Shown one piece after another: positions 9,693-62,720 of a DNA stretch of 64,000 bases. The stretch covers positions 184,938 through 248,937 of the forward strand of contig JABABV010000001.1 of NCBI GenBank assembly GCA_014238055.1, given 5' to 3'. The position numbers and the translations under genes are program-made. Position 1 is the first letter of the stretch; each line of letters begins with the position of its first letter. The stretch is from Mycoplasmatales bacterium. GTDB taxonomy: Bacteria > Bacillota_I > Bacilli_A > Mycoplasmatales > JABABV01. The notes beneath the pieces are model-generated. The model was not told the DNA's origin. It saw only the letters and a list, made by a program, of their open reading frames with translations, and did not search any database.

Positions 9693-9720
9693 AAATAAGG
9701 TAACCCTTATTTTTATTTTT
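9691..9720. terminator. Bidirectional terminator between the convergent ROK and PTS genes
   Basis: AAAAATAAGG / CCTTATTTTT with loop TAAC, flanked by an A-run and a T-run. Confidence 0.6.
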
Positions 9721-19073: not shown

Positions 19074-21974
19074 TTATCCATATATCTTAAACATAAAGAA
19101 TACGAATATTATAAATAGAATTATACAAGCTGTTAAAGCATAAAATTTAAAATAATTAACTCGTTTAATAATTTTTTTATTATAAATACGATCTTTAATA
19201 TTTGCATAATTTAATTTATCATAGATTTTTTCATTGATAGAGATCAATATCAGAGTAGACATAGATACCACTAGCGGAACAATGTATGTTCAGAAGCGAT
19301 AGAACCCTGTAAACGTTTTGATATTGTCTTCAGTGGCATTCTTAAACGAACTGAAGTTAATTGCGTAAAATAGAGCATCTATTGTACCTGCTCCACCTGG
19401 AGTAGGCATAAATGTATTAGCTACGTTAACTACTTTTTGAGATGATAAGAAAGCAAAGTAACTAATATCACTATCTAAAGTACCCATTGATTTTTGAGCG
19501 AAGTAATAAACTGCTAAAAAAGATGGGGCCGCATTAACTATACATAAAAGAATCATCGTTTTTTTATCTGTTCAGATTATTTTAATACTTCTTCGAAGTT
19601 CGCTAGCCTCGTGTTCTAAACGAGCATATTCACGATCATAATCTTTAATATATCTAACTTTAACTCCTAGTTTTAAGAAGAAGCTAATTAAAAGTCGATG
19701 AATTTTTGTTGATAATCCAGCAATAAAAAATACTGCTGAAACTAAAATATCCATAAAAAATCCAATAATAACACAAGATAAAGCTCAATATCCTGCCGCT
19801 CCATTATGGAAAAAAGTTTGTTTTAAAATAACTAACCCAGCAGGTATTAAAATAATGGCAATAATAATTTTAACTACTTGATTTACGATCGTTTCAACTA
19901 ATAGAGCTGATATTAATTTATTAGTTTGAACTTTTTTTCTTCGTAAATATCAAATTTGTAAAATTTGTCCTCCTGTTGAAAAAGGAGTTATTCCAGAAAC
20001 TATTTTATCTAAAATTTGAGCAATAAAGGCATGACGGTATTTCAAACCAGTCTTAAATTTCTTTCCAACAATCCAGACCCCTAAAGCACTAAAAGGTGCT
20101 CAAGTTAAAAAGATAGTGAATAGAAATACCACAAAATAAACAGCATTTTGACTACTTAAATCTCTCGAACTATGATGTCAAATAGCGGTAAAAATATCTC
20201 ATGATTTACGACTGTCATTACTATAAAATCTATAAACTAATATTAATAAAACAGCCATTAACATAACGCTTCAGAAAAGTCATATCCCAATTTCTTTTTT
20301 AGAAATTTGGGTTTTTTTAGAAACGTTTGTTAATATTTTAATTTCTTTTTCAAATTTCCTAAATTTAATTATTGCATTAATTTTATTGTTAGCAATTGTA
20401 CAATAATAAATTTTTAATTTAGGTTCTGTACCTGAAGGTCTAACAGCGATTCAAGAACCATCTTCTAAATGGAATTTAATCATGTTAGTTTTTGGAAATC
20501 CAGAAACACCTTTTCTAAAATCTTCTGTTTTAAGAACTTTAATTCCTCCAATAGAAGAAATATCTTGTCTTAAAGTATGCATGAAGTCTTCAACTTCAGC
20601 TTTATTATTAATCATTATAGATGTAGTTTGTTCATAATAATAACCATACTTATTATAAATTTCTAACAAAACATCGTTTAACGTTTTGTTTTGTGATTTA
20701 TAATAACTAGCAGCATCAGCAATTAATAGAGCTGTTTGAAAACCATCTTTATCACGACATAAATCGGAATTTATTAACGAACCATAAGATTCTTCAAAAC
20801 CATAAAGAAAGTCTTCGTTTTTAGTATTTTCAATTAGATGACCGATTCATTTAAATCCTGTTAAAGTATCTTTTACTTTAACATTATATTCTTTAGCAAT
20901 AGCATCAACTAAAGTTGTTGAGACGATTGATTTAGCAATATATTTATTTTTTAAATCAGCTTTAGCTGTATTAGATAAAATATATTCTAATAAAATAGCA
21001 GCTGTTTGATTACCATTTAAAATTTTATATTGTTTATCAACTTTTAAAACAACACCGACACGATCAGCGTCAGGGTCAGTTGTAATTCCAATATCAAAGT
21101 TTTTTTTCTTTAAAAATTTTATAATTTTATCATAAGCAGTATTGTTTTCCGGATTAGGAGATTTAGTTCCGTTAAAATCAGGGTTTGGATCTCTTTGCTC
21201 GGGAACAGTAAAATATTGATAATTATTCTCTTCGAATAAACGTTCCATTATTTTTAAAGATGTTCCTTGTTGCGGGGAAAATACGATCGATGCTTTTTGA
21301 CTAAGTTGATTGTTAAATTGAATTTTATTAAGATCGGTAATATAATTATCGATTATTTTTTGCGGTATTGTTGATCATTTTTCTTGATCACTTAAAGCAA
21401 TATCAAAAAAATCAATTTTTTTAGAAATTAAACTTATTTCGTCAGTATCTTTTGGCAATAATTGACAACCATTATGATCGTAGACTTTAAAACCATTATA
21501 CTCTTTTGGATTATGTGATGCAGTGATCACAATTCCCGACGCTAAATTCATTTTTCTAATTACATAAGATAAAAGCGGTGTTGGTTGTAATTCGTTGTTT
21601 TCAAAAAGAAAAACTTTAAAACCGAGATCAATTAAAACTTTGGCACTAATCTCACTAAATTCATTCGACATATGACGATTGTCATGAGCGATAACGATTC
21701 CTTTAGTTAAGTTATTGGCATTTTGTTTTTTTAAAAATTGACCTAAACTTCATGCTGCTTTTCTAATAGTATAACTATTAAGACGTTTGTTACCAGGACC
21801 CATTAGTCCACGTATACCTGCTGTTCCAAACATTAATTCTTCACCAAAATAAGCATTAATTTTATTGTGCTTAATTTTAGTTAGTGCATTATGATTTTTA
21901 GCATCTAAAGATTTATTATTTAATCATCGTTTGTATTCTATTTCGTTTATAGTTAGTTCTTTATTTTTTTTCAT
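19074..21974 (-). CDS. In-frame fusion: phosphoglucomutase/phosphomannomutase (N, about 555 aa) + LPG_synthase_TM / UPF0104 flippase-like membrane domain (C, about 410 aa)
   Basis: N-terminal part: FGTAGIRG, TASHNP (catalytic Ser), DPDADR, RPSGTEPKLKIYY. C-terminal part: multiple TM helices and a PTPGGAG motif. All fragments lie in one frame. I translated 20453 down to 19752 codon by codon and found no TAA or TAG, only TGA. Confidence 0.7.
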
Positions 21975-21982: not shown

Positions 21983-23125
21983 CTATTTATAGCGTTTACG
22001 CGCCTCTTTACGCGCTTCTTTATTGTGACGATTATTAATTCGATCTTTATATTTAGTTGATAAACGATTGTAGTAACTATCTCATTCTTGACAAATAATG
22101 TCATGATCATATTTTTTAGCTATCGCTTGGCTATATCCTTTAGCAGCAGCATAGCTTTCTTTATTAGTCGCTAATTTATCGATTATTTTAGCAAAATCAG
22201 CATTGTTATTAGCTTTTAAATATTTTGTAAAATTAAATATTTCAGCATATTCAGGTAAATCTCTTAATAACATTGGCACATTTACATTAGCTGCTTCTAA
22301 AATTGACATTGGAAACAACTCGTTTAAAGCCGGCATAAAGAAAAGGTCAGAAACGTTTAAATAATCATTAACTTCTTCTGGACTTACGCGCCCTTTAAAA
22401 AAGACATTGTCAGGAGGATTAGAAACAAATTGTTCGATTTCTTTATGTCCATGACTCATTTTTTTAAAGGCGAACGAACCAAGTCAAATAAATTTATATT
22501 TTGGTAACTTTTTAGCTACTTCAATAAAATCTTTAACACCTTTTCTAGTTTGTAATTGACCCACAGAAACTACAATAAATTCATCTTTAAATAAATTATA
22601 TTTTTTACGTAGCTCTAATCTTTCTACATTAGAAACAGGTGAGAATCCGCTGCTATCTACTACATTAGGAATATAAGTTATTTTTGAACGATCAACACCG
22701 ATATCAACTAAATCATTAATGAACATAGGATTAACTACAACTAGTTCATCTACGTGAGTTAAAAAATAATTAGATCAACTAATAATTTTTTTTAAAAATA
22801 AACGATGGATTCAATTTTGAGGATCGTATGAATTATCTGTATGTGTGTGCGGAATAAAATGTACGTTAAAAATTGTTACTCCATGATATTTACCGCGACG
22901 CATATGTCATTTGTAACGTGGATCTGGTGTGTTCATATGAATAAAATCAGCATCAGATTTACGATGATTTGTAGTTTGATATTCACTAGCAAAAGGTTCT
23001 TTTTCAAAATGTTTTAAGAACTCTCTTCAAGCAGAACCTGGACCAGTAGCTTTAACTCTATGAGCACTTGACAATAAATTTATTGATAGATTTTTTTTAC
23101 CTATTAAAGATTTTTTAATCGACAT
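21983..23125 (-). CDS. GT4-family glycosyltransferase (380 aa)
   Basis: AAGGAG before ATG 23125. GT-B C-terminal domain with EX7E (ELFPMSILEAANVNVPML). The ORF track stop at 22082 is a TGA; the true TAG is at 21985-21983. Confidence 0.8.
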
Positions 23126-30699: not shown

Positions 30700-31182
30700 T
30701 TATATCGTGCAAACTTCTTTTTCTCCTGAACTAATAGCTTTAACAGAATTACATAAACGAACAACTTCTTTAATAGATCTTGGCAGCAATACTGCATTCT
30801 TACCAAAATGTCATAAAATATTTTTCGGATCAGTAATTAAAGTCGCTCTAATTGATAATTTAAATTCTGGATCAAAAATATTATTTTCAACTAATCATTC
30901 TTCAGATAAAGAAATCATGCTAAAAGGTAATTTGTGTTCATCTTTTCATTTTTTTAATTCAGCTGCTGAACTTAAAGAACCTACAATAATATTTACTGAA
31001 TCAAAAGAATTACTTAAAGTCGCCAATCTATGAACTTCACTATCACAAATTGAAGTACCTAATTTTGGCACTATGAACAACAGATTATAATTATCTTTTT
31101 TTCAATTAATTTTTTCTAATTTACCTTCTAAATTTACACCATCAAAATTCAAATTTTCAACTTTTGTATTAACTTTAAACAT
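30700..31182 (-). CDS. tpx: Thiol peroxidase (atypical 2-Cys peroxiredoxin, Tpx)
   Basis: GGAG before ATG 31182. VPKLGTSICDSEVHRL peroxidatic-Cys context typical of Tpx. The plus-strand ORF 30707-31033 is its antisense shadow. Confidence 0.75.
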
Positions 31183-31211
31183 ATAATCAACTCCTAATTA
31201 TTTTATATTTT

Positions 31212-32219
31212 TCATTCTATAACTGTTTTAAATTCATTTTTAAGATCTTTGGAAAAAGCCTCGGAGACGTCTTTCAAAGATTCGGTAACAATGATTTCAT
31301 CTATTAAGTTTTTACTTAATTCACTGAATTCTTTATTTTTCATTAAATTAATAATAGCTTTGAAATCATCATAACCACTACGAGACCTACCTATAATAGT
31401 AATCCCTTTTTCTAATAAATCACGATATTTAAAATTAAAATCACTATCGCTGATTCCTAAAAGAATAATTGTACCTTCAGGAATCAATAATTTAATAGCT
31501 TCAATTACAATATTGTTTTGCTGACTTCCGCCAACACACTCAAAAACAAAATTATAATTATTATTATCTTTATCAGTTGGTTTAGTATTAAATTTATTTT
31601 CAATATGTTGAAAACGCTTTAACTTAGAATCATGTTTTCCAAATAACGAAATTTCTGCATCAGGTAATAAAAACTTAATAATCAAACTAGTTGAAAAAGC
31701 AATCGGCCCATCACCAATAATAGCAACTTTAGGTTTTTTGATTTTTTGAGCTTTTTCTAAAATAGCATTTATACCATGATGCGCCACTGATAAAGTTTCA
31801 CACATTACTAAACTTTCTCTATCGATATCATTAGCTTTAATTAATCGATTACTATCCATATCAATAAATTCTTGCATAAAACCATCAAATCCAGAACCTC
31901 TAAATTTACCTTGAACATAGTTTTCGGCAAAATCATTACATAAATAATCTGGCGTATTAGGTACCATAATAACTTGATCACCGATTTTAAATTTATTACT
32001 ACTATCAAAAACAACTTCTCCAATTGCTTCATGAATCAAAGCCATTGGTAACTTTTTGTTTAAAATTTCTTGATCTCGATTACCTAAAAAATAACGTTGA
32101 TCAGCTTTACAAATAGCTAATAATTTTGGTCTTACGATCACTTTATCATTTAATTTAATATCTCGATACGTTTCAATAAATTGGAATGGTTCGATTAATT
32201 GATATACTTTATTAATCAT
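31212..32219 (-). CDS. tarJ: Ribulose-5-phosphate reductase (ribitol-5-phosphate 2-dehydrogenase), TarJ
   Basis: MINKVYQLIEPFQFIE...ICKADQRYFLGNRDQEILNKKLPMALIHEAIGEVVFDS...MVPNTP...GFDGFMQEF closely tracks S. aureus TarJ as I remember it. The ATG at 32219 overlaps the tarI stop; two further in-frame ATGs lie upstream (32225, 32231). Confidence 0.8.
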   Translation of the reverse strand: MINKVYQLIEPFQFIETYRDIKLNDKVIVRPKLLAICKADQRYFLGNRDQEILNKKLPMALIHEAIGEVVFDSSNKFKIGDQVIMVPNTPDYLCNDFAENYVQGKFRGSGFDGFMQEFIDMDSNRLIKANDIDRESLVMCETLSVAHHGINAILEKAQKIKKPKVAIIGDGPIAFSTSLIIKFLLPDAEISLFGKHDSKLKRFQHIENKFNTKPTDKDNNNYNFVFECVGGSQQNNIVIEAIKLLIPEGTIILLGISDSDFNFKYRDLLEKGITIIGRSRSGYDDFKAIINLMKNKEFSELSKNLIDEIIVTESLKDVSEAFSKDLKNEFKTVIE

Positions 32220-32925
32220 CCTCATTACCAATTTCTACTATCGCTCGCGCTAATCTTAAATCGTAAGGAGTAGTTATTTTTATATTAGATTTTTTTCCAT
32301 AAATTAAATGAATTTTTTTACCAAAATGAGAAAACAATCCACAAGCATCAGTGAAATTATCGCCTTCTACTTTATTATATAATTTTTTGAATTCAGATGA
32401 ATTAAAACTTTGCGGTGTTACTCCTTGTAACATTTTTTTACGTTCAGGAATACTAGTAATTACTTTACCATCTTCACTAAAAACAATCGTATTGTCAGAA
32501 GTTACGACTGTATCTAATATTTCGTGTTTTGATATTAGATCAACATGTTTTTGAATTGTTTCATAAGATACAAAAGGTCTAACTGAATCATGAGTGATTA
32601 AATTAAAATCTTTTGTTTTTAATAATTTTTCTGAAAAATCAATTGAATTTAAAATTGTTTTATTTCTATTGATTCCTCCTTCACAAACAAAAATAGTTTT
32701 ATCTATTTTACCCGGGAAATTATTTTTTATTTCTTCAATAACATAGTTTTTTCATTTTTTATGACTTGCTATTACAATCGCATCAATATTTTTTACAAAT
32801 AAAAATCTTGAAACAGTATGAATGAAAATATCTTTATTGGCTATTTTTAAAAATTGTTTAGGTTTATCGATGTTTCCCATTCTATTTCCGACACCACCTG
32901 CTAATATGACAGCTATATTTTTCAT
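32212..32925 (-). CDS. tarI: D-ribitol-5-phosphate cytidylyltransferase (IspD/TarI family)
   Basis: AAGGAG before ATG 32925. MKNIAVILAGGVGNRMG...KPKQFL, THDSVRPF. Translationally coupled to tarJ. Confidence 0.8.
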
Positions 32926-32942
32926 AGTAAACTCCTTTTTAA

Positions 32943-34949
32943 TTAAATTAATTTTTCGACATATATATCTTTAATTTTCATGATTGGTTTTAACAAATTA
33001 GTTTGAGTGCTATAACTATTAAATTTCATTATTAATGTTATATTCCAACTTTTTAATTTATTCACTTCGTCTAAATCAAGATTATTATTTTTCATATCTT
33101 TAATAATTGGTTGCGCTTTTTTTCATGATCCGAATTTATTATTATTAGTTCATCACGCAGAATAAGAATTTAAAAAATAACCTTTATTTACAAAATTCTG
33201 CATTAAAAATAATTCTCTATCTGCAAGTAAAATCATATCATTATTAGTTACATAATTGTTTAATGAATTAAAATCTCGATTAAAATAAGTTTTTCCAGAA
33301 TTATTTGTGTTATTAATTAAAACCCCTTCACCTAAATTATATTTTATCGATGCGCATTTTGCATAAATTGATATTGAACTAGCTGAAAAAATTACCAAAG
33401 GAACGAAAGCAAGCGTTCCGTAATTAATTTTTTTATTAATTTGAATAAATTTAACATCTTTAAGACTCATCATAATTATAAAAATAGCGAAAAAATTACT
33501 AGATATAATATATATTCTATAAGAAGAATCAGATAATATTTGATAAAATATAATTCAAAAACAAGGATTATAAACAGTAAAAACTAATCAAGTATAATAA
33601 TGAAATTTTTTAGTTTTGATAGTTTGATATATTACTAACGTTCATAAAACTACAAATAAGATAGCTAAATCTATATTAAATAAACCTGCTTTTCCGTTTA
33701 GATATAAACTTAAATTTGATCAAGCTAATTTATCAATTAGAGTTTCAATTTTATAATTAGGGTATTTCTCATTAAAAATATTTCAATGATTATTAATTAC
33801 CATAAAAACTAAAGACATCAAAGATATTGATAAAATAGTTATAATTATTTGTTTGTTTGTGACTTTATTAATTATTTTATTTAAAAAATCCACTATTTTA
33901 GTTTTATATATTAGAATAATCATAATCGTTAATATTGATATTTCAACTAAAGTCATTATTATATTTGGAGTTGAAAACTTTATCATAGTCATAAATATAA
34001 ATAAAAAAACAATAATAGATAATAGTTCTTTGTTAATTTTTTTATTATAAACAACAATTAATATAACAAATAATAATTCAGGAAATATAACATAAGAAGA
34101 AACCACAGAATTAGCAATAGCAAATATGAGTAAATATAAATTACTAATTTTAGAATCTATTTTGTAAATAAAAATAATAAAAAATAATAATAAACTACCT
34201 AATGCAAAAGATAAATCTGTTCCTCTAACGCTTCATTTTAAAAAATAATTTTGCATAAAAGTTAAAACTATAGCTAAAAATATAAATATTAATATATTTC
34301 AATTTCATCTACTACTACCATAAATATAAATTAAATATATTAATATCATAGAAAATGTAAATATTAATATTGAGTTCATCATTAAAGTAGAATAGATTAA
34401 ACTTCCAGAAGCCATTTTGAAGACACTGATTATTAAATAATAACTTTCATTTAAATAATAAGAACTGACATCGTGATTATTTCACGAAAAACTCGTATTA
34501 ATATTAATGTGCTTAAATCAAGAATTAGATTTAACTAAATCTAAATAATAACGATTATCAAAATTAAAATTTTTAACTGGTTGAAAATTAAAAATAATTA
34601 AAATCAATAAAAATAAACTTCATATGATTAAATCTACTTTTACGTTATTTCAATTAAGAATTATTTTTTTATTAATTATTTTTATAATAAATAAAAACCA
34701 AGTAATAAAAATAAATAATGCCAAAATGATGAATCAAACAATAAAATCTAAAACGAATATAAATGGTAATAGATTAGCGATGAAAGATAAAAATAATAAA
34801 GTGATGAAAGCGGCGCAAAATCTGATTATTGATTTAGTAAACCTACTATCTTCTCCGTCTTTAGAAATCTTTATAATATTTATAGGAATTAAATAAAATA
34901 ATGGAATTTCTACTAATAATAATATTAAAAATATAATTATCGGTGTCAT
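32943..34949 (-). CDS. Large polytopic membrane protein (668 aa), candidate polymerase / GT-C-type transferase / ligase
   Basis: Three track fragments share one frame. More than 12 hydrophobic helices, then a roughly 150-aa hydrophilic C-terminal domain. The ATG overlaps the HAD stop (TAATG). No family motif recognised by eye. Confidence 0.6.
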
Positions 34950-35785
34950 TAATTATCATCTTCTTTTAATAAATTCTTATTAATTCAACTAGCAACCCCA
35001 TTATCTTTATGTCCAAGTGTGCTTTCTGAAGCAATTACTTTTAAAGTTTCACTAGCGTTTTTCATACTCACCGATACTCCCACTACATTAAACATGCTTT
35101 CATCATTCATAGAATCACCAATTGCAGCAGTTTGATCTAATTTAATATTTAATTTATCACAAAGAAATTTAACTCCATTACCTTTAGAAGTTTTTTTTCC
35201 AGTGATTTCAATAACTCAACCATTTCCAGATGTAGCAATTTCTAAATGCGGAAATTTAGCATCTAACTCTTTTTTCAATAGTTTAACAATTTTACGTTTA
35301 CGACCAGTAAACATAATTTTAAAATATGATTGGTCTTTAATTTTATCTAAAAAATATTCTTTATGTAAAATAGCATCCATTTTTGATCACTTAACATAAA
35401 GTTTAGTTAATAAATTAGTGCCATAAAACTCAAATGGTTCATCTACTTTAATAGAAAAATTATGATTAACAGCATATTTAATAATTTCATTAACATCTTT
35501 TTTCTCTATTTTTTTATTATAAAGACTTTTCTTTTTAGAGATATCTTCTATATGCGCACCATTAAAAGAAACGAAATAATTTCCAAAATTATTAACTCTT
35601 ATTTTTTCTTGAATCTTTCGACAACTATTAGTTCCTCTACCACTATTTACAATAACATAAATACCTTGTTCTTGCGCCGCTTTACAAGCTGCTAAATTTT
35701 CTGGACTAATATAATGTCTTTGATGACGTTTTCCGTTAACTAAAGTTCCATCTAAATCTAAAAAAATCGCTTTTATTTGATGCAT
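34949..35785 (-). CDS. HAD-IIB (Cof-type) phosphatase
   Basis: IKAIFLDLDGTL (DxD nucleophile), SGR, GDSMND motifs. Confidence 0.8.
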
Positions 35786-35787
35786 AA

Positions 35788-36783
35788 TTATTTTTCTCCA
35801 ATACTATTTTTATTTTGTTTTGGACTTACTTGTTTACATACTATCTTTATCAATCTTTTTCTTGGAACTAAAAACGTTATAAGACTAATAAATCATGGTT
35901 TACAACTCATAATTAAAAAACGATTCTTAAAAACTTTATTAATTATTTTTTTATTATATTTTGATTTAATGTATTGCTTTAATGTTTTATAACTATCATT
36001 TCTTAATTTACGATCACTAATTAATTTAATATCGATTAATTTAGGACACACAAATCTAAATAATAATATTTGAAATTGTTCTTCAGTAGTGATGTTTTCC
36101 AAAAATTTATTTACAGTAATAGCTTCTAATTGTTGGCCTTTAAAAGTTCTACTGACACTACCTTCGTTTATATTCGTTAAAATAAAAGGTTCATCTATAT
36201 ATAATATTTTAATATTATCTTGACAAATCTGCGTCAAAATCGCAACATCTTCATCATAACTAACATTTAAATCAGCTGTTATTTTTTTTGATAACGCTTT
36301 TTTAAAAATACAATTAACCATTGATAATGAATTTTTAAGTAAAAAGTTATAATCGATTTCAAAACTATTTTTGCTTGATTTATTTTTTATTTTTTTGTTA
36401 CCAGAAAAAGAAAAGCTTCCCATGTCGTAATCGTTATCTATAATCAAACTTAAATTATTTGCTAAATTTTTAAAATAATAAGAATCATCAATATCTAAAA
36501 AACAAATATATTTTCCAGATGCTTGATTTATCCCAAAAAGACGAATATGATAAAGATCATTATTTAATATTTCTACTGCTTTTATTTTTGATAATATTTT
36601 ATTATCTTCAATAATTTCAATTGGAAATTTATAATCTTTATTTTTAACTAATAAAATTTCATATTCAAAATTAGAAAAATTTTTAGCTATTTCTAATATT
36701 AAATTTTTAATATTATCTTCAAATTTTACTTTATGATAAGGTAATACAAAACTAATAATTTGTTGTTTGTTGTTTGTATTCAT
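35788..36783 (-). CDS. GT2-family glycosyltransferase (331 aa)
   Basis: ISFVLPYHK... N-terminus and GKYICFLDIDD (DxD). The track stop at 35893 is a TGA; the true TAA is at 35790-35788, 2 nt before the HAD ATG. Confidence 0.75.
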
Positions 36784-36870
36784 AATACCTGCTTTCGTCT
36801 ATAAAAATATAAAACAATTTTATATATATAATACCATAATTAATAAATTAAACCAATTTTTACAAAATAA

Positions 36871-36890
36871 AAAGCAGAATATTCTGCTTT
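36871..36890 (-). terminator. Intrinsic terminator after trxA
   Basis: Perfect palindrome AAAGCAGAAT/ATTCTGCTTT followed on the minus strand by a T-rich run. Confidence 0.65.
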
Positions 36891-36901
36891 TATATTTATA
36901 G

Positions 36902-37213
36902 TTATTTATGATTATTAATTATATCTCTAATTGCTGGTTCTGGTCTAAATCCTGAAAAACGTTCAACTTCTTTTCCGTTTTTTAAGATAACCATAGTAGG
37001 CACAGATTTAATATCATATTCTTGTGCATATTCTTGGTCTTGATCAACATCGATTTTAATTATTTTAGCTCCTAAATTTGTATCAGTTGCTAATTTATCT
37101 AAAATTGGTGCAATCATTTTACAAGGTCCACATCAAGTTGCAAAGAAATCCACTAACACTAATTCTGTATCGTTAATAATTTCTAAAGCTTCTTTTTTAC
37201 TAATTGCTTTCAT
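36902..37213 (-). CDS. trxA: Thioredoxin
   Basis: MKAISKKEALEII...VDFFATWCGPCKMIAP. The active-site Trp is encoded by TGA. Confidence 0.9.
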
Positions 37214-37258
37214 ATTTCCCCCTAAGTATTTAAAATTTATAAATATATTTTAACATGT

Positions 37259-38155
37259 TTACTTTTTAAAAGATAAATTTTGCTTTAATTCTTTTTTAAG
37301 TTTTAACATTTCGTTTTTATCATTAAAATAATCGAGATAAGATTTATCGTTCTTAAATAAAACAAAATGTTGGTTTTGATAAACTTTATTTTTTGGTATA
37401 TCCATTACGTCATCGCCATATTTATTAATTAAAAAATCGATACTATTTTTTAAAATTGGAAATTTTTGTTTTTCAAAAGTTTGTAAAATTATTTTTGATT
37501 CAATAATTTTTTTAGAAAAACTAACTTTTGGAAATTCTAGCGGATCAACTAGACATCCATAACGATAATTATCTTGTAATTTATTTCATTTAGAAAATCT
37601 ATGGTCCATTAATTTAGCAAATCATTTATTTGGCATTAAATTAAGAAATAATTTTAAACTAAAATATCCTGGTGCTATTAATAACTTTAATCAAAAATTA
37701 AAATTATGGAAACTCAATCGTTTAAAACGAACATATAATAATATATTTCAAAAACTATATAATTTTAAAAGTAATTTTCTTTTTTTGGTAGGGAACTTAT
37801 CGATTGGAAAAATATCGATAAACAAACCATGAGCTCACTTAGCTTTTTCACTTCAAGTTTCAATTACAGTCGTACTATTATCTTCTCATTTCATAAAGAA
37901 ATTGTCGTTTCCAGACATAAAAGCTTTTTTAATACAAAATGGTTTAGGTACGTCTTTAATCAATAGCTCTAATTTACGATAATTATCTCTATCCATACAA
38001 ATATCAATATCATCATCTCAAGGAACGAATCCTTGATGACGTAACGCTCCGATTAAACTACCATAACCTAAAAAATATTTAATATTATTTTCATTGCAAA
38101 ATTTATCAAATGCAATTAAATTTTTCTTTAATTCTTCATGTAATAATTTAATCAT
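37259..38155 (-). CDS. LicD-family phosphotransferase, paralogue 1 (298 aa)
   Basis: [28 protein letters not shown] is the LicD signature ([20 protein letters not shown]). Confidence 0.8.
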
Positions 38156-38166
38156 AAATCAATTCC

Positions 38167-39024
38167 TTATTTAGATAAAGTTATGCTTTCGCCGTTTTTC
38201 ATTTGGCAAATATAATTTTTTCCGATTGATTTAATTTCATCAAATTCTTCCGGAGCTAGTCCTGTTTTTTTAACAGCATAAATTAATGCTTTTGTTTCAG
38301 CATCTTGATTATATTTTTTATATTTCGGATCTAAACGTTTTAAATCATCTAAATTATCAACATCAAAAATAGAATTCTTTTTAACTAAATGACAATATAT
38401 TTTTATTTTTGGTTTTTCGCTTTTTAAATCATTGATAATGATATCTTCAAAATATCAATCGTTCATATCGATGCTTTTACGATATTTTTTTAATGATTTT
38501 CTAATTTTTTTATAAGTATCTTGACCAATAAAAGTAACTTCTCTTTGAGCGATTATATTAACGCCTCCAGATTTTTTAATTTTAGTAATCTGTTGTGTTT
38601 TTTGATTAACAGTTAGAGTTCATTCATTTGAAACACCATTAATTTTTTCACCATACATTAAAGTGTGTGGAAACTCTTGTTCAAAAATATTTTCTTTAAG
38701 AATAGTATCCCCGTTAACAATTAAAGCGTTTTTTAATTTATTTTTAGCGAAATATAACGTTCCAATATTATTGCAATGTCTTCAATTAAAATTATATTTT
38801 ATTTTTACTTTAAATTTTGATTTTAAATATTTAAATTTTTTATGTTTATAACCCGTTAAAATAGTTATTTTTTTAATGCCTTTTTCTTTAAGTTTTTTAA
38901 TAATATCTTCAATAATGATCGTTCCGTTTATATCTATTAATGGTTTTGCAGTTTCTTTTGTAACTGGTAGTAAACGCATACCTCGTCCAGCAGCTAATAT
39001 TAATGCTCTTTTAACTTTATACAT
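38167..39024 (-). CDS. LicC-like nucleotidyl (cytidylyl) transferase for a phospho-alcohol (285 aa)
   Basis: GGAG before ATG 39024. KRALILAAGRGMRLLPVTKETAKPLIDING, the sugar/phospho-alcohol nucleotidyltransferase N-terminus. The longer METIKNY... start in the track overlaps LicD2 and has no SD. Confidence 0.7.
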
Positions 39025-39028
39025 ATTA

Positions 39029-39805
39029 TTATGATTTCTCCTTCTTATTTTTAAAAAAATGATGTCCTCTACGATTTTTAAATGACGGTAATTCTTTATA
39101 GTCTCCAAAATAATTAATTAATATTTCATCATATTTATTATAAACGTAATATTCTCTATCTTCAAATTTTACTAGTTTAACTTTTGAAAATCATTCTCTG
39201 TCGAACATTTTAGATTGATGTTTTTTGAAAGCATAAGGATCAGAAGGGAAATAAAAATGAGTATAATTATCTTCTTTTTTAGATATTATATTTTCAATAT
39301 TATTAGCAATTTTCTTATAGAACATATTGCTAATAAATTTAAATTTATGATCACTTAAATTTCAGTAAAAAGCCATTTTTCTAAAATTTTTATTAACTTT
39401 TTTTAAACTTAAAGGTGCTGGTGAAATAACAAATATATCAACAAATATTGAAGTTTTAAAATTAAAATCATTTGTTTTTAAAAATATTTTATTAATTGCT
39501 TTATTCCATATTTTATTTTTATAATCAAAAATCAATAACTCTTTATTATATTCTTGATTAATAATATTTTTAAACTTTAAATAATTTTCCATCGTCATCA
39601 CAATATCTAAGTCATCATCTCAAGGAATAAACCCTTTATGACGAACTGCACCTAACATAGTTCCTCAAAATAATGAATATTCAATATTATGTTTAATACA
39701 AATATTATGAATTTTATCTGTAATGTTAAGTAATTTTTTTTGAACATTAATTAATTGATCAATTTCTTGACCATTCATATTAATATCTATATTTTTATAC
39801 AACAT
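39029..39805 (-). CDS. LicD-family phosphotransferase, paralogue 2 (258 aa)
   Basis: [28 protein letters not shown]. Confidence 0.8.
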
Positions 39806-39838
39806 TTAAAATTACCTCAAAATTCTATAATCGTGATT

Positions 39839-40720
39839 TTAATAATTATGTGTTCTTTTTCTTTCTTGTAAAGGTGGCAAAGTTTTGTAATCATAGTCTT
39901 CTATTTTGCATTTCCCTTTAGAATAAGCATGCTTTATTACTCAATCATAATCTTTCATAATTAATAATTTATAATTTTCAAATTTAATATCAATAACATC
40001 ATTAAACATTGATTTTTTAATTGTATTTAATTCATAATTAAATTTTAATTTATATGCAAACGGTGATGTTGGCATATAATACCTATCACTTTTGTATTTT
40101 TTATAAATGACTTTATTAACACTTCTAATAACGAACTTTATAGGCACCAAAAAGATAAATGGTTTTAAAAATCAAAATAACATTTTTTTCTTAAAACTGC
40201 CAATTTGTTTATTTACATTAGGAATCAATTTTAAAGATATAGTTCATAAAATTTTTGTTTTTAAAATATTATATCGAGCTTTAAAATTACTTTTAGGCGC
40301 TGTAACTACTACAACTATATCTACTGATGCATTAGTTTCTAGAGCGCAATTAGGATAATCATTATTTTTAAACCCTTTTTTTGAAAACTCTATTTTAACT
40401 AATGATCTAGCAAAAGTTTTACTATTTCAATCAAATATTTTTATTCTATTATCGTTTTTTAATTCTATTATTTTTTTTAATTTTAAATAATTTTCTAAAG
40501 TCATGGCAATATCCATATCGTCATCTCAAGGAATGAATCCTTGATGTCTAGCGGCACCAATCATACTACCTCAAATTAATGAATATTTAATATTATTTTC
40601 AATCATAATATCGTGTAGCATTTTAATAAATTCTAAAAAATTATTTTGTAATTTACTAAGTTCTTTAATTTCTGATTTAGAAATATTTACTTCTACACCT
40701 TTATATATATTACTTAACAT
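39839..40720 (-). CDS. LicD-family phosphotransferase, paralogue 3 (293 aa)
   Basis: [28 protein letters not shown]. The ATG lies 11 nt inside the end of the upstream PLP-enzyme gene. Confidence 0.8.
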
Positions 40721-41825
40721 TTTTCTCAGATTCTTTATTTAAAAAAGCTTTTATCCCAGAAATTAATATTTGATTTTGTTTGTGATTACCAATAGTTAAC
40801 CTTAAACCAATAGTTCTAACATTTCTAATACAAATAGAATAATTTACTAATAAGAACATTCTTAATTCATGATTTTCTCATTTTTCTTCTTTTGTTATTA
40901 AAAATATATAGTTACCTTGACTCTTAATAAAATTAAGATTTAATTTTGCAAATTCATTATATAAATATTCTTTTTCTGATATTGCTTTAGCTTTCATATC
41001 ACTATATCATTGACGATCATTTATAGCTGCGGTAGCGGCGTAAATTGCATATTTATTAGTAGATAATGGTTGGTATGTTTTTTTCATTGCATCTATTAAA
41101 TATTTTGAAGATAAAGCGTAACCTATACGAAATCCACTTAAACCGAAAAATTTTGAAAAAGTATGTAATATTAAAATATTATCATGCGTTTTTATTAGTT
41201 CGCTAGTTTTGTAAGGGAAATCGTTAGCATTAGCAAATTCGCAATATGCTTCATCAATAACTAATAAGATGTTTTTGGGAACTTTTTCAACAAAATCATA
41301 TAATTCTTTTTGATTTATATAAGTTCCTGTTGGCATATTTGGATTTGTTATATAAATAATTTTTGTATTACTATTAATAGCATTTAAAATACTATTTAAA
41401 TCATAATTATAATCTTCTAACTGTTTAATAATATTCACTTTATTTCCAGTAATTTTTGCAGTATTAGCATGTCTTCCATAAGTTAAATCAGTAACGATGA
41501 CTTCATCTTTTTCATCTAAAAAAACTCTTGGGATCAAATCTATTATTGCATCACTACCATTAGCAATCATGATATTATCATTATTAACATTTCAATATTT
41601 TGAAATTGAATCTAAAAGTTTTTTAGGTTTCATATCTGGATATATAAACCCCTTAATATCATTTTTAACTTTAATTCATTCATTAACTTTTGGAGAACAG
41701 CCAAATAAATTTTCATTATAATTCATTTTAATAATTCTTTTTATATTATGTTTTTTTTCTAATTCATTCATTGAAGGTATGTTGTGATCTGTTAAATTAA
41801 TAATTTCTTTTTTAATTTTTATCAT
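40710..41825 (-). CDS. Class I/II PLP-dependent enzyme, HisC / CobD (aminotransferase or phospho-amino-acid decarboxylase) family (371 aa)
   Basis: MNYNENLFGCSP (HisC/CobD N-terminal motif), ITNPNMPTG, and HTFSKFFGLSGFRIGYA with the PLP lysine. First gene of the LicD operon. Confidence 0.75.
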
Positions 41826-41930
41826 GTTGTTCCTTTCAAACTAAAATATAGCTTTATATTAAATAATAAATAACTAATTTTAATTATATCATAACTAAAT
41901 ATATAGATAAAATAATTAGCAAAATAAAAA

Positions 41931-41958
41931 AAAGCAATTTCTAAAAAGAAATTGCTTT
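41931..41958 (-). terminator. Second of two tandem terminators after the tRNA operon
   Basis: AAAGCAATTTCT / AGAAATTGCTTT, then a T-run on the minus strand. Confidence 0.6.
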
Positions 41959-41982
41959 CATGTACTCACTGCCATTAAAAAA

Positions 41983-42001
41983 AACACCGATAATAGGTGT
42001 T
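41983..42001 (-). terminator. First terminator after tRNA-Leu
   Basis: AACACC / GGTGTT hairpin followed on the minus strand by T8. Confidence 0.5.
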
Positions 42002-42028: not shown

Positions 42029-42113
42029 TGGTGCGCGAGAAGGGAATCGAACCCCCACGTCGTAAGACACTAGATCCTAAGTCTAGCGCGTCTGCCAGTT
42101 CCGCCACTCGCGC
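42029..42113 (-). tRNA. tRNA-Leu (UAG)
   Basis: Reverse complement GCGCGAG...CTCGCGC-A-CCA, anticodon loop CTTAGGA, long variable arm. Confidence 0.9.
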
Positions 42114-42116
42114 ATA

Positions 42117-42192
42117 TGGTGATCCCGAGAGGATTCGAACCTCCGACACCCTGATTAAAAGTCAGATGCTCTACCGGCTGAGCTACGGGACC
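42117..42192 (-). tRNA. tRNA-Lys (UUU)
   Basis: Reverse complement GGTCCCG...CGGGATC-A-CCA, anticodon loop CTTTTAA. Confidence 0.9.
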
Positions 42193-42196
42193 AATA

Positions 42197-42273
42197 TGGT
42201 GCTGGAGACAGGAATCGAACCTGCAACCTACTGATTACAAGTCAGTTGCACTGCCAGGTTGTGCTACTCCAGC
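42197..42273 (-). tRNA. tRNA-Thr (UGU)
   Basis: Reverse complement GCTGGAG...CTCCAGC-A-CCA, anticodon loop CTTGTAA. Confidence 0.9.
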
Positions 42274-42289
42274 GGATAAGTTTGTATAA

Positions 42290-42365
42290 TGGTGGATTAA
42301 TTCAGGATTTTCACCTGTTCTATTAATTCTTGTAACATTAATAGATCTTTAACAAGATAATCCAT
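42290..42365 (-). pseudogene. tRNA-sized, CCA-ending tRNA-like element (degenerate)
   Basis: Reverse complement GGATTAT...TTAATCC-A-CCA (6 of 7 acceptor pairs). No D-arm. Perfect 9-bp stem TCTATTAAT/ATTAATAGA with 9-nt loop GTTACAAGA. T-arm CAGG-TGAAAAT-CCTG lacks the TTC motif. Confidence 0.4.
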
Positions 42366-42366
42366 A

Positions 42367-42442
42367 TGGTGGGGCGTACAGGGCTCGAACCTGTGACCCC
42401 GTGCTTGTAAGGCACGTGCTCTCCCAACTGAGCTAACGCCCC
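42367..42442 (-). tRNA. tRNA-Val (UAC)
   Basis: Reverse complement GGGGCGT...ACGCCCC-A-CCA, anticodon loop CTTACAA. Confidence 0.9.
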
Positions 42443-42448
42443 ATATAA

Positions 42449-42524
42449 TGGTGACCCGTACGGGGTTTGAACCCGTGAATGCATGCGTGAAAGGCATGTG
42501 TGTTGACCGCTTCACCAACGGGCC
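42449..42524 (-). tRNA. tRNA-Glu (UUC)
   Basis: Reverse complement GGCCCGT...ACGGGTC-A-CCA, anticodon loop CTTTCAC. Confidence 0.9.
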
Positions 42525-42528
42525 ATAA

Positions 42529-42603
42529 TGGCGCCATGTATAGGATTTGAACCTATGACCAATCGGTTAACAGCCGATTGCTCTACCACTGAGCTAACAT
42601 GGC
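42529..42603 (-). tRNA. tRNA-Asn (GUU)
   Basis: Reverse complement GCCATGT...ACATGGC-G-CCA, anticodon loop CTGTTAA. Confidence 0.9.
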
Positions 42604-48167: not shown

Positions 48168-50684
48168 CTATAGTCCGCATTTTAATTGGGCACCACAATT
48201 AATACAAGTATTGCATCCACCTAATTCTTTAACGATACCTTCAGTACAAATCGGACAAATATTGTCTATTTCAACACCAATTGAACGTTCATGTTTTGAA
48301 CCACGTAAATTACCATCTAATTTTTCATTAATTTCTTTAACTTGTTCACTATTATTTAATTTTATATCTTTATCTTTAGCTTCCTCAGCATCACTTAAAT
48401 TATTTTCTTCAGCTGATAAAGTTAAAACTTGAGATTCACGTGAACCATCAACATAGACAGTTCCTCCTTTAGCGCCACCTTTATAAAGCTGTGAATAAAT
48501 TTCTTCAACTTGTTTAACGCTATATCCTTTAGGAGCATTAACCGTTTTTGAAATTGAAGAATCTACTCATTTTTGAATAATTAATTGTACTCCGACATGT
48601 TCTGAAGGACTCAATTCCATAGCACTAACAAAAATATCTGGTAATTTATTTTTTTCATCAAAATTATTTAATTCCATTCATTCTTGAACGATTGGTTGGT
48701 TTACTTCCATAAATTTACCTAATCTTCCAGAACGGTAATATTTAAACGCAAAATAAGGTTCTAGTCCTGTTGATACTCCAACCATAGTTCCAGTTGAACC
48801 AGTTGGTGCAATTGTTAAAATATGAGAATTTCTAATTCCGTATTTTAAAATACCTTCTTTTATTTTTGGATTTAATTGCGATACAAATCCAGTATTAATC
48901 ATTTTTTCACGATCTTTTAAAAACGGAAATGAACCTTTTTCTTTCGATAATTCGATTGAATATAAATAACCAGTCTCAGTTATACATTTCATTACTTTAT
49001 TAATTAATTTATTTGCTGATGGTGAACCGTAACGTTCTCCAGCTCAAATTAACATATCATGAAGACCCATGATTCCCATACCTAAACGACGTTCTCCCAA
49101 TGCTTGAGTTGAGTTTTCATCTAAAAAGTAAGGCGTTCCGTCAATAACATTATCTTGCATACGTACACAAGTTCTAACACTAGTTTTTAATTTATTAAAA
49201 TTAATTTCACCAGTTTTACGATCAACGAAGTTTGCTAAATTGATAGCAGCTAAATTACAAACAGAATAAGGTGCTAACGGTTGTTCTCCACAAGGATTAG
49301 TACAAACTACTTTTTGACCATATGCTTTGGCATTTGTCATTGAGTTAGCAGTATCCATGAAAAATACTCCTGGTTCAGCTGAATAAGTGGCACAAAAATT
49401 AATTAAATCTCATAAAGTTTTCGCTTTTAAAGTTAAGTATTTTTTAACCGGTTTTCCTAAAGCTTCTCATTCTCTTACATCACCCATTTTTTGTCATTCA
49501 GTGTCATAAAACTTTTTATCTTCTGCATTAAGAGCATCTACATCAGGAAATTTTAAAGTTCAATCAGCGTCTTGTTCAACAGCTTTCATAAAATCATCAG
49601 AAATAGATACAGAAATATTTGCTCCAGTTAAAAATTCAGGATTTTCAACTTCTCAAACACCAGATTCTTTAATTATTTTATGAGACTCTGTTGTTAATGT
49701 TTGATTTTCTTTAGCTAATATTTTTTCAATAACAGAAACAGAATGATTGCTTAAAGGTTTAAATACTAATTTTTCAGCAGCTAATTTACGAATGTAGGCA
49801 TGTTCTGATTTATCTTTTAAAAACTGTAAAATATTAGAATTTTGCATTTTTGAAATCATAAATTCTAGAATATCTGGATGTCAATCAGAAAGCATAATCA
49901 TTTGAGCTCCACGACGTGATCCACCTTGTTCAACTAAATGCGTTAAGTTAGCAATGTCATTTAATCAAGAAACAGCTCCTGATGATTTACCTCCAACACC
50001 TTTAGCTAAAGCTCCTCTTGGTCTAAGAGTAGAACCGTTAGTCCCGACTCCTCCACCTCTTGACATTATTTCCATAACTTGTTCACGATGACGAGAAATT
50101 CCAGTTCTTGAATCTTGAATAAATGGCATAACAAAACAATTAAAGTAAGTTACGTCAAATCCACTTCCAGCACCAAATAATACTCTTCCAGCAGGAATAA
50201 TATTTAATTCAGAAATTTCTTTCGACATTTTAGCAGTTCAACTATCTCTAGCTTCTTGAGTAATTTCTTGACCAGCTAAACTTTTACCAACACGTTTAGC
50301 AATTTGTTCAAAATAAATTTCTAACGGTTTATCAATTTCTTTTTTAGGTCGATTAATAATTCCGGTTTCTAATTCTTCACCAGTTAAAGAACCTCAAAAT
50401 TCTTCTTCTAATTTAACATCTACGCTTTCAGCATAAATTTTTTGAATAACTCCGATTCCCTTTGTCGGATATTTAGGATCGTGTTTAACTAATGTTAAAA
50501 CTAAATCGCCTTCTTTTAAAGTTTTTAAATCAATATCTTTTTGAGCATAACGATCTAACATAACTAATCTTGAAACGCTATCTCTTGATAATTTCATAGT
50601 TTTATTATTGATTGTTTCAAGGTGAGGGTAAAAACTTTCAATAGCTTCGTTAATAGATTTAACTATCTGTTTCGAATATTTCAT
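48168..50684 (-). CDS. nrdJ: Class II (adenosylcobalamin-type) ribonucleotide reductase NrdJ-like, with C-terminal Cys4 zinc-ribbon (838 aa)
   Basis: Single polypeptide; five fragments in one frame. RLVMLDRYAQKD N-terminus, TNPCGEQPL active-site loop, and C-terminal CPICTEG...GGCNTCINCG. No nrdF- or nrdI-like gene is adjacent. Confidence 0.7.
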
Positions 50685-62683: not shown

Positions 62684-62720
62684 TAAATATATATTAATTT
62701 CTAGATTCTTTTCCTTTAAT

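Follow-up and report, generated by a model that had tools for sequence, protein, structure and literature searches.

A Tar/Lic-type phospho-alcohol decoration locus, predicted to pair CDP-ribitol with a CDP-amino-alcohol, in an uncultured Mycoplasmatales bacterium

A 64,000 nt stretch of DNA from a Mycoplasmatales bacterium (GCA_014238055.1, contig JABABV010000001.1), the whole of which is referred to here as the window, contains a block of eleven co-directional genes on the minus strand (31203-41825), numbered from g01 (TarJ) to g11 (a HisC-like pyridoxal phosphate (PLP) enzyme). We moderately favour the reading of this block as a surface-glycoconjugate decoration locus of a small uncultured Mycoplasmatales clade, which would draw on both cytidine diphosphate (CDP)-ribitol and a CDP-amino-alcohol. 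By analogy, the system as a whole may be likened to the pneumococcal tar/lic genes or to mammalian ISPD-FKTN-FKRP. The eleven genes emerge with translation table 4 (UGA read as Trp), each with 1 to 16 in-frame TGA codons; under table 11 the 29-44 kb region fragments into dozens of short open reading frames (ORFs). This use of UGA, together with a window GC content of about 27%, indicates that the DNA comes from a Mollicute-type organism. Domains were called with Pfam at gathering (GA) cut-offs, NCBIfam equivalog models and PDB sequence searches. An earlier, sequence-only reading of this DNA had assigned domains by inspection, and every one of its assignments was reproduced (alcohol dehydrogenase (ADH)/medium-chain dehydrogenase-reductase (MDR), IspD, Hydrolase_3/Cof, Glycos_transf_2, Thioredoxin, three LicD, NTP_transferase and Aminotran_1_2).

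Related loci were labelled L001 to L012. Four syntenic genomes are compared throughout, namely the window, L002, L003 and L008, of which L002 and L003 are metagenome-assembled genomes (MAGs) labelled 'Mycoplasmatales bacterium' and L008 was found through the search with the PLP enzyme. L006/L007 belong to Mycoplasma marinum (GCA_004335975.1) and L009 to a Mycoplasma sp. MAG, while L011 and L012 are further contigs. Relatives of g11 and of TarJ were surveyed among the best 120 matches of each.

The enzymes for the first donor are encoded at the downstream end of the block. TarI, a D-ribitol-5-phosphate cytidylyltransferase (g02, 237 aa, 32212-32925), scores 238.1 bits on NCBIfam NF001183 against a cut-off of 166. 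Its PDB matches to TarI of B. subtilis, S. aureus and S. pneumoniae (4JIS, 6XHP, 2VSH) range from E=1e-56 to 7e-48, and the best true IspD in the PDB follows 35 orders of magnitude behind the TarI entries, at 4e-21. TarJ, a ribulose-5-phosphate (Ru5P) reductase (g01, 338 aa from the likely ATG at 32219, 31203-32219), matches S. aureus TarJ (PDB 6XH9) over its full length (residues 5-340) at E=3.8e-73, with a xylitol dehydrogenase as the next PDB match at 3e-9. The catalytic Cys, His and Glu of the MDR family are present, in the motifs AICKAD and LIHEAIGE, which in this family provide zinc ligands. The proposal that the pair belongs to the subfamilies of CDP-ribitol synthesis, rather than being a generic IspD and ADH, is borne out by these matches. 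By homology, TarJ would reduce Ru5P to ribitol-5-phosphate, from which TarI would form CDP-ribitol.

The second donor is attributed to g11 and g08. The product of g11 (371 aa, 40710-41825) has a Pfam Aminotran_1_2 score of 190 bits and finds HisC (PDB 3FFH, E=8e-46) as its best structural match, yet it falls outside the HisC equivalog: it reaches 261.8 on TIGR01141 hisC against a cut-off of 276.55 (and 175 against 290 for CobD), its substrate-arm residues are changed, and its gene lies among LicC and LicD genes rather than his genes. Among the best 120 matches, roughly a dozen Mollicute sequences with 39-82% identity to it form a clade, beyond which lie ordinary HisC proteins at about 33-36%. 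Twelve members of this clade were aligned with E. coli HisC and eleven canonical HisC proteins. The clade retains the PLP lysine K214, D184, Y187, R222 and Y55 as well as the phosphate-binding R322 and R335. Three residues that are invariant in canonical HisC, Y20, Y113 and N157 (N157M), are replaced in 12 of 12 members, and the clade has gained an invariant Tyr at position 36 (S36Y) and an invariant Arg at position 112 (M/Q112R). Retention of the PLP and phosphate residues alongside loss of Y20, Y113 and N157 suggests that g11 still binds a phosphorylated substrate, which would not be histidinol phosphate.

The product of g08 (285 aa, 38167-39024) matches pneumococcal LicC (PDB 1JYK) over its full length at E=5e-31, followed by PntC (PDB 6PD1) at 6e-10, so that its earlier assignment as LicC-like holds and it is a true LicC homologue. 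The fold and the catalytic residues are those of LicC (LAAGxGxR, K28 and D107 are conserved), but the choline pocket is not. When six Mollicute LicC-like proteins (the four syntenic ones and two distant ones, from M. marinum and Mycoplasma sp.) were aligned with S. pneumoniae LicC, D105 was found replaced by Asn in all six, and D192 by Glu in the four syntenic genomes, the two distant proteins having Ile or Leu there. Cys or Gly stands at Y85 and Asp at E216, and g08 additionally carries R129I. W136, D107 and the catalytic motif are kept in six of six, and Y190 is kept in the four syntenic proteins and is Phe or Met in the distant two. Y85, W136 and Y190 are positions of the aromatic choline box of LicC. 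D105 and D192 flank the amine in LicC, and PntC, whose substrate 2-aminoethylphosphonate is a primary amine, has the larger residues Glu104 and Glu196 in their place; LicC itself favours phosphocholine over phosphoethanolamine 2700-fold (PMC6697681).

The two genes travel together. The HisC-like gene directly precedes the LicC-like gene in L002, L003, L006/L007, L009, L011 and L012, often with a stop/start overlap; the pair is separated by one or two LicD genes in the window and L008. The linkage is thus present in eight Mollicute loci examined, and no histidine pathway is present that would explain a PLP gene beside a LicC-like gene. Taken with the altered pockets of both enzymes, the linkage makes it probable that the second head group is an endogenous amino-alcohol phosphate, which g11 would make from a central metabolite and g08 would activate with CTP to give the CDP-amino-alcohol. 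The sequence-only reading had suspected that this group is not choline; the suspicion is strengthened by D105N, D192E and Y85C in the LicC pocket and by the PLP linkage in eight loci, and the identity of the group is what we infer from pocket residues and linkage.

Our preferred, though tentative, candidate is serinol phosphate made from dihydroxyacetone phosphate (DHAP). The natural keto substrate of HisC is a 3-substituted 2-oxopropyl phosphate, and DHAP has the same skeleton with a hydroxyl replacing the imidazole. Transamination of DHAP to serinol phosphate is established for Cj1437 (PMC11800397) and RtxA (PMC3222319), and serinol (2-amino-1,3-propanediol) phosphate is a proven part of the major M. 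fermentans glycolipid MfGL-II/GGPL-III (PMC3403081). On these three grounds CDP-serinol is proposed as the second donor. Ethanolamine phosphate or aminopropanol phosphate, reached through a CobD-like decarboxylation, are alternatives to serinol.

Transfer of both head groups would fall to three LicD paralogues: g07 (LicD1, type A, 298 aa, 37259-38155), g09 (LicD2, type B, 258 aa, 39029-39805) and g10 (LicD3, type B and fast-evolving, 293 aa, 39839-40720). Their scores on Pfam LicD (PF04991) are 119.5, 107.8 and 88.6 bits against a GA cut-off of 22.6, and the motifs WDDDID, WDDDLD and WDDDMD are intact, which upholds their assignment to the family. The best NCBIfam model for all three is the Mf1 diacylglycerol cholinephosphotransferase NF045866, on which they reach 77.2, 88.8 and 90.3 bits against a cut-off of 225; by these scores they are members of the same superfamily as Mf1, not Mf1 orthologues. 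LicD1 has a single PDB match, a weak one, to FKRP. From what is known of the family, the three proteins are presumably phospho-alcohol transferases that use CDP-alcohol donors, each linking an alcohol phosphate by a phosphodiester bond to a sugar or to an alcohol phosphate added before. Their transfers may be successive, in the manner of FKTN and FKRP building tandem ribitol phosphate (PMC4873967) and of Mf1 on glucosyl-diacylglycerol (PMC11982090). Two of the syntenic genomes have one type A and two type B paralogues, and the other two have two of type A and one of type B. The LicD1 orthologue of L003 (5415-6728) is split into fragments of 132, 43, 30 and 96 aa, the result of either pseudogene formation or assembly errors.

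The principal competitor for the second head group is the classical lic scheme, in which the LicC-like enzyme would make CDP-choline from host choline or phosphocholine, one or more of the LicD proteins would add phosphocholine, following S. pneumoniae, H. influenzae or the GGPL-I of M. fermentans, and the PLP enzyme would be an unrelated housekeeping enzyme. It has in its favour that the best structural homologue of g08 is pneumococcal LicC, that the top NCBIfam model for the three LicD proteins is a cholinephosphotransferase, that W136 and Y190 of the aromatic box are kept, and that a DMT/EamA transporter is a conserved neighbour of the block. We nevertheless consider it unlikely. The window was scanned for LicA, LicB and teichoic acid genes by Pfam and NCBIfam for the block, its neighbours and ambiguous ORFs, and by eye for the remaining ORFs; no choline kinase gene resembling licA was seen in the 64 kb, as had been noted before. 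The EamA protein matched no PDB entry, not even LicB, and no NCBIfam model, and as a candidate LicB choline permease it was dropped. D105, D192 and Y85 of the LicC pocket are replaced in every member, the PLP gene is repeatedly linked to the LicC-like gene with no histidine pathway to account for it, and LicD scores of 77-90 bits lie far from the Mf1 cut-off.

The LicC-like proteins also differ in length. A C-terminal extension of about 50 aa (KYKK..AE.KALI..VKKTGL..EE...IK...NYI, window 38167-38320) is common to the window, L002 and L008 and truncated in L003. Neither pneumococcal LicC nor the homologues in M. marinum and Mycoplasma sp. have it.

Mollicutes are the textbook wall-less bacteria, and the sequence-only reading had presented the lack of peptidoglycan as a paradox for a teichoic-acid-like product. 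The paradox dissolves with glycolipid anchoring: lipoteichoic acids (LTA) and the M. fermentans lipids GGPL/MfGL-II are anchored on glycolipids (PMC3403081), and a gene for an IagA/BgsA-like family 4 glycosyltransferase (GT4) lies 8 kb from the block. The best NCBIfam models for this candidate glycosyl-diacylglycerol-forming enzyme (21983-23125, minus strand) are the IagA/BgsA LTA-anchor model, at 147 bits (cut-off 460), and the processive diacylglycerol alpha-glucosyltransferase Dgs model, at 123 bits (cut-off 500), both below threshold; the enzyme is 67% identical in L002. Directly downstream of it, also on the minus strand, a 966-aa protein (19074-21974) fuses a phosphoglucomutase (PGM; Pfam PGM_PMM_I-IV) to an MprF-type, flippase-like LPG_synthase_TM domain (88 bits), so that the two genes are 8-12 kb downstream of the block; the fusion recurs beside glycosyltransferase genes in L002 and L012. 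In L009 a 925-aa LPG_synthase_TM protein stands beside a family 2 glycosyltransferase (GT2) gene, with no PGM match on record.

Neighbourhood and precedent point to a glycosyl-diacylglycerol as the most likely acceptor, which the GT4 would make and the GT2 of the block would extend. The precedent is Mf1, a LicD-family enzyme of a Mollicute that decorates glucosyl-diacylglycerol (Glc-DAG) from CDP-alcohols (PMC11982090). The PGM fusion would supply sugar-1-phosphate and may couple this supply to translocation of the glycolipid. The phosphatase g04 would perform a dephosphorylation step and g03 a membrane step (export, polymerisation or ligation). The expected end product is either a phospho-polyol glycolipid, zwitterionic or anionic and anchored in the membrane, or a short LTA-like chain. 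Of the earlier proposal of a membrane-anchored ribitol phosphate product, then, the gene identities stand, and the product, its anchor and the part played by g03 are plausible assignments from sequence.

Four genes of the block remain. The orphan g03 (668 aa, 32943-34949) is a polytopic membrane protein with about 14-17 transmembrane helices by hydropathy, a conserved loop at residues 125-171 (D131-N132, SYY..ESYY) and a C-terminal soluble domain of 139 aa. It has no Pfam match even at E values up to 10, no NCBIfam match and no PDB profile match. When 1.84 billion representative proteins were searched exhaustively with HMMER, only two homologues were returned (30-33% identity), to which L008 adds one, all of them syntenic; the loci of M. 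marinum and Mycoplasma sp. gave no match to a hidden Markov model of the four members. A crude topology from loop charges suggests that the conserved loop and the C-terminal domain may face outward, which would fit a polymerase, a ligase or a GT-C-like enzyme, and we propose g03 as a candidate new family for the membrane step. The product of g04 (278 aa, 34949-35785) is a Cof-type phosphatase of haloacid dehalogenase (HAD) class IIB with a DLDGT motif (Hydrolase_3, 191 bits) that passes the Cof subfamily model TIGR00099 (172 bits, cut-off 137). One possible role, by analogy with Cj1435, is removal of a terminal phosphate after transfer. The GT2 enzyme g05 (331 aa, 35788-36783, FLDIDD motif) scores 29.4 bits on Glycos_transf_2 (GA 23.3), matches TuaG in NCBIfam and GalT1 in the PDB (5HEA, E=9e-4) weakly, and has one C-terminal hydrophobic segment at residues 289-307; its gene is duplicated in L002. 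Finally, g06 (36902-37213), the last gene of operon 1, encodes a thioredoxin with a WCGPC motif (Pfam Thioredoxin, 99 bits). Its gene trxA also adjoins the PLP-LicC pair in L009 and L011, and it is probably an ancestral housekeeping neighbour and not a pathway enzyme.

Two other products can be set against a decorated glycolipid. In the first, modelled on pneumococcal and Hib capsules and on FKTN/FKRP, ribitol phosphate would decorate a secreted or capsular polysaccharide or the glycan of a lipoprotein. A GT2 gene next to a large, fast-evolving membrane protein resembles capsule loci with their quickly diverging Wzy-like polymerases, and LicD-family enzymes do act on capsules. The superfamily also acts on mammalian protein glycans (PMC4873967). 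This product is improbable, however, in that the block lacks an initiating phosphoglycosyltransferase, Wzx, an ABC exporter and any recognisable Wzy domain, the only characterised Mollicute LicD acts on Glc-DAG (PMC11982090), and a GT4 of the glycolipid-anchor type is a conserved neighbour. In the second, to which we give an equally low probability, the locus of this clade of wall-less Mollicutes, marine or host-associated, would make a true analogue of lipoteichoic acid, a glycolipid-anchored chain of ribitol phosphate and serinol phosphate, alternating or mixed, in which the amino alcohol would contribute positive charge as D-alanine and choline do in Gram-positive bacteria; both a CDP-serinol pathway (a DHAP transaminase derived from HisC and a cytidylyltransferase derived from LicC) and the g03 family, as a membrane polymerase, ligase or exporter, would then be undescribed. 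The sequence-only reading had itself called the locus teichoic-acid-like. None of the genes for polymerisation, export or ligation of teichoic acids (TagO, TagA/B, TagF/TarL, TarGH/TacF, LCP, LtaS, TacL) was found in the window, by Pfam or NCBIfam for the block and its neighbours and by eye for the other ORFs; the window holds precursor and decoration modules only. The term teichoic acid locus thus overreaches, and Tar/Lic-type phospho-alcohol decoration locus is the accurate one.

The polyol itself has also to be considered. Downstream of tarI, tarJ is absent from two of the four syntenic genomes, L002 (12732-12948) and L008 (19885-20521), and no tarJ remnant was detectable in either within 22 kb of fetched DNA. 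The gap past tarI in L008 is 636 bp long, AT-rich and non-coding, and a terminator-like hairpin follows directly on tarI. AbpA and AbpB make CDP-arabinitol in pneumococcal serotype 17F, and TarI and TarJ could likewise make a CDP-polyol other than CDP-ribitol, or TarI alone could activate a polyol phosphate that does not depend on TarJ. Retention of tarI where tarJ is missing fits such a scheme, as does the divergence of both proteins: TarI orthologues are just 45-54% identical, and TarJ is equally distant, at about 40-45% identity, from every characterised relative, so that its specificity cannot be read from identity. We regard another polyol as quite unlikely all the same, since TarI passes a curated model for ribitol-5-phosphate cytidylyltransferases and the best matches of the pair are the biochemically defined TarI and TarJ of S. 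aureus and B. subtilis.

Gene order is common to the four syntenic genomes, running from purA through a cluster of six tRNA genes (Asn-Glu-Val-Thr-Lys-Leu; 42029-42603, minus strand, in the window) and the block to a tpx-like gene; in L002 and L003, for which longer stretches of DNA were fetched, EamA, PTS and metK genes come next, as in the window. Flanking housekeeping proteins of the window are 60-82% identical to those of the syntenic genomes. Within the block, identities to relatives are 73% for the LicC-like protein, the most conserved product of the block, 66% for TrxA, 65% for the PLP enzyme, 64% for TarJ, 57% for the HAD phosphatase, 45-54% for TarI, 47-54% for LicD1, 41-53% for GT2, 36-47% for LicD2, 31-35% for LicD3 and 29-31% for g03. 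The precursor enzymes (LicC-like, PLP and TarJ) evolve at housekeeping rates and the transferases (LicD and GT2) and g03 fast, which we take to be usual for a surface-polysaccharide locus. Conserved donor synthesis combined with fast turnover of transferases and of a membrane component is the pattern of capsule and O-antigen loci. The content of the block varies among the genomes as well, through loss of tarJ in two of them and turnover of LicD genes.

The sequence-only reading had noted low GC and an adjacent tRNA operon and had taken both to fit an accessory or acquired island. The six tRNA genes are real, and so is the AT-richness of the block, whose genes have a mean GC of 0.229 against 0.270 for the rest of the window (Mann-Whitney p=0.002). 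Most of the deficit comes from codon positions 1 and 2 and so from amino-acid composition (GC at third positions, GC3, is 0.125 against 0.146), and core genes in the window (53021-55071 and 62081-63641) are as AT-rich or more so, with holB at 0.155, comF at 0.179, the dimeric dUTPase at 0.193 and asnA at 0.194. Low GC here tracks weak amino-acid constraint rather than foreign origin, and the compositional argument for an island is not supported. Outside the clade, the closest TarJ relatives form a plateau at 40-45% identity among Firmicutes and Pasteurellaceae, and the best 120 matches include no named Mollicute. A genomic island recently acquired beside the tRNA operon, a reading to which tRNA adjacency, GC below that of the flanks, these TarJ relatives and the separation of trxA from its likely partner tpx by operon 2 (resembling an old insertion) all lend themselves, is very unlikely, and recent horizontal acquisition was rejected, because site, orientation and tRNA cluster are identical in four genomes with flanks diverged to 60-82% identity, GC3 barely differs, core genes are more AT-rich, and no integrase, repeats or mobile-element genes were seen. 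An old acquisition, with which the TarJ plateau and the place of operon 2 between trxA and the tpx-like gene would agree, is possible; any such event would be older than the divergence of these species.

Apart from the terminator region after trxA, the genes of the block are separated by gaps of at most 45 nt or overlap slightly (g11/g10 by 11 nt, g04/g03 by 1 nt, tarI/tarJ by 8 nt), with gaps of 2 nt between g05 and g04 and of 4 nt between g09 and g08, the latter counted from a LicC-like start at ATG 39024. On the minus strand at 36870-36891, directly after trxA and before the GT2 gene, a terminator-like hairpin (AAAAGCAGAATATTCTGCTTTT, then a T-run) is predicted to divide the block into two transcription units, in keeping with the two-operon layout described earlier. 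Two further terminator-like hairpins (41930-42001, minus strand) end the tRNA cluster and form the upstream boundary of operon 1, and a GAAAGGA ribosome-binding site and the ATG of g11 come next. The gene set described earlier also stands, with two of its coordinates corrected. The TGA at 31212-31214, where tarJ had been taken to end, is a Trp codon inside the gene, whose stop is at 31203. The LicC-like gene, which had been started at an upstream TTG, most likely starts at ATG 39024, which is preceded by an AAGGAG site and yields about 285 aa rather than 313 aa. The tpx/AhpC-like gene begins 20 nt past tarJ, has its own ribosome-binding site, is separated by no terminator and is probably co-transcribed with operon 2. 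No phase-variation tracts comparable to the CAAT repeats of H. influenzae lic1 or the poly-A tracts of mycoplasmas were found within the locus, and the search for riboswitches or other Rfam elements upstream of either operon matched only tRNAs. A reading of the block as a decaying remnant was rejected, as the eleven ORFs are intact, they carry the catalytic motifs, and four genomes have retained the block.

Several points weigh against our interpretation. The organism is known solely from metagenome assemblies, and the interpretation rests on sequence. At the level of sequence, TarI and TarJ may be specific for either ribitol or arabinitol, and the genomes lacking tarJ would need another source of ribitol-5-phosphate, or a TarI that takes another polyol phosphate. 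All three LicD proteins score far below the Mf1 equivalog cut-off. The enzyme g11 could be either a transaminase or a decarboxylase. No M. fermentans homologue of g11 is present among the best 120 matches, which leaves the link to MfGL-II as a chemical analogy. No member of a known flippase, polymerase or ligase family lies in the block, and the AlphaFold2 prediction for g03, made on a 3-sequence alignment, is of low confidence (mean pLDDT 38).

Other genes around the block were recorded in passing. Downstream of it the order is tpx-like gene, EamA/DMT transporter, a GlcNAc/Glc-type phosphotransferase system (PTS) EIICB, metK, a membrane protein, nagA, nagB, the GT4 and the PGM fusion; upstream, the six tRNAs are followed by purA, purB and guaC. 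The Tpx/AhpC-like peroxiredoxin (30700-31182, minus strand, PxxxTxxC motif, here PKLGTSIC) forms the downstream border of the block in each of the four genomes, and it and trxA (36902-37213) bracket operon 2. The two may be a natural redox pair between which operon 2 was inserted. The gap between tRNA-Thr and tRNA-Val (window 42273-42367) measures 93 nt, against 5-6 nt in L002, L003 and L008, and reflects a small insertion. On the minus strand at 48168-50684 lies a gene for an 838-aa protein resembling the large subunit of ribonucleotide reductase (Ribonuc_red_lgC, TNPCGEQ) with a C-terminal CxxC...CxxC tail, 80% identical in L008; no nrdF or nrdI is adjacent to it in the window, and it may be a monomeric class II ribonucleotide reductase, which to our knowledge would be unusual for a Mollicute. 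A sugar cluster at 4882-12420, judged from translations read by eye, comprises a 6-phospho-beta-glucosidase-like protein of glycoside hydrolase family 1 (GH1), a GH38 alpha-mannosidase-like protein, a ROK kinase and a large PTS EIIABC of the fructose/mannitol type whose C-terminal tail is long and Lys-rich.

Among the more distant loci, that of M. marinum (L006/L007, 4428-18950) holds the HisC-like/LicC-like pair together with Glf (UDP-galactopyranose mutase), GT2, GT4 and LicD genes, a TagF-type CDP-glycerol glycerophosphotransferase (PF04464) and three large unannotated proteins (685, 542 and 606-619 aa). In L012 a TagD-type CTP_transf_like gene is close to the PLP-LicC module. Polyol-phosphate chemistry may be widespread in this Mollicute group. 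The 8.5-kb contig L001 (ENA ERZ26869290 ctg232785) carries the window's operon 2, and its positions 1-2415 are an inverted duplicate of trxA, GT2 and part of a third gene, a palindrome that is almost certainly a fold-back assembly artefact.

The closest known system is that of S. pneumoniae, whose lic1 region has the order tarI-tarJ-licA-licB-licC and whose lic2/lic3 regions hold tacF and licD1-3. Like the window, it combines TarI/TarJ-made CDP-ribitol with a second, LicC-family CDP-alcohol and several LicD proteins, and its polymer can be glycolipid-anchored. Unlike it, the window has no licA, no demonstrable licB, no tacF (Wzx), no TarP-type polymerase, no TacL ligase and no LCP enzyme, and belongs to an organism without a cell wall; it has in addition a HisC-like PLP gene linked to the LicC-like gene, and the LicC pocket bears D105N, D192E and Y85C. 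The GGPLs of M. fermentans are not known to contain ribitol. Their pathway to GGPL-I/GGPL-III (the Glc-DAG synthase Mf3 plus Mf1) resembles the window in being a Mollicute system that uses the LicD family, with Mf1 acting on alpha-Glc-diacylglycerol and MfGL-II holding serinol phosphate (PMC3403081, PMC11982090), and differs in that the LicD proteins of the window fall below the Mf1 cut-off and M. fermentans provides no g11 homologue among the best matches. No paper assigning genes to the serinol-phosphate part of MfGL-II was found in the literature.

Mammalian ISPD-FKTN-FKRP shares with the window a CDP-ribitol enzyme of the IspD/TarI type and two LicD-superfamily paralogues that add successive ribitol phosphates (PMC4873967), but its acceptor is a protein O-mannosyl glycan (on alpha-dystroglycan), it has no second CDP-alcohol, and it operates in the eukaryotic Golgi. 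Cj1437, Cj1436 and Cj1435 of C. jejuni HS:2 likewise place PLP enzymes (DHAP to (S)-serinol phosphate; serine phosphate to ethanolamine phosphate) and a HAD phosphatase in a surface-polysaccharide locus (PMC11800397). There, in a comparison made by description, an ATP-grasp amide ligase joins the amino-alcohol phosphate to glucuronate, with no CTP or LicD involved. PntC systems such as the Tde1415 PntC-aminotransferase fusion pair a LicC-family enzyme with an aminotransferase that makes a primary-amine substrate and have Glu at the equivalents of LicC D192 and D105 (PMC6697681). They differ from the window in having a class V aminotransferase as the partner and in needing a phosphoenolpyruvate mutase, which the window lacks, and g08 is nearer to LicC (5e-31) than to PntC (6e-10).

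No paper tying Mollicutes to CDP-ribitol, ribitol or teichoic acid biosynthesis was found by a full-text literature search. In public data as they stand, the Tar/Lic-type block with CDP-ribitol is restricted to a handful of uncultured Mycoplasmatales, and the PLP-LicC module is more widespread. The system would surprise mycoplasmologists, and everything past donor synthesis in it is inferred. If the interpretation is true, wall-less cells have kept, or regained, a polyol-phosphate surface chemistry carried on a lipid anchor, with a bearing on immune recognition and on interaction with the host such as phosphocholine and the GGPL lipids have in M. fermentans. The g03 protein, with four members among about 15 billion proteins, may represent a new family that serves a membrane step in the assembly of glycoconjugates. 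A nucleotide-activated amino alcohol not described before may be the product of the linked HisC-like and LicC-like genes, and the PLP-LicC pair is a testable candidate route to the serinol phosphate of MfGL-II. Since M. marinum is a cultured species and carries the PLP-LicC module beside a TagF-like gene, the idea can be taken to the bench.

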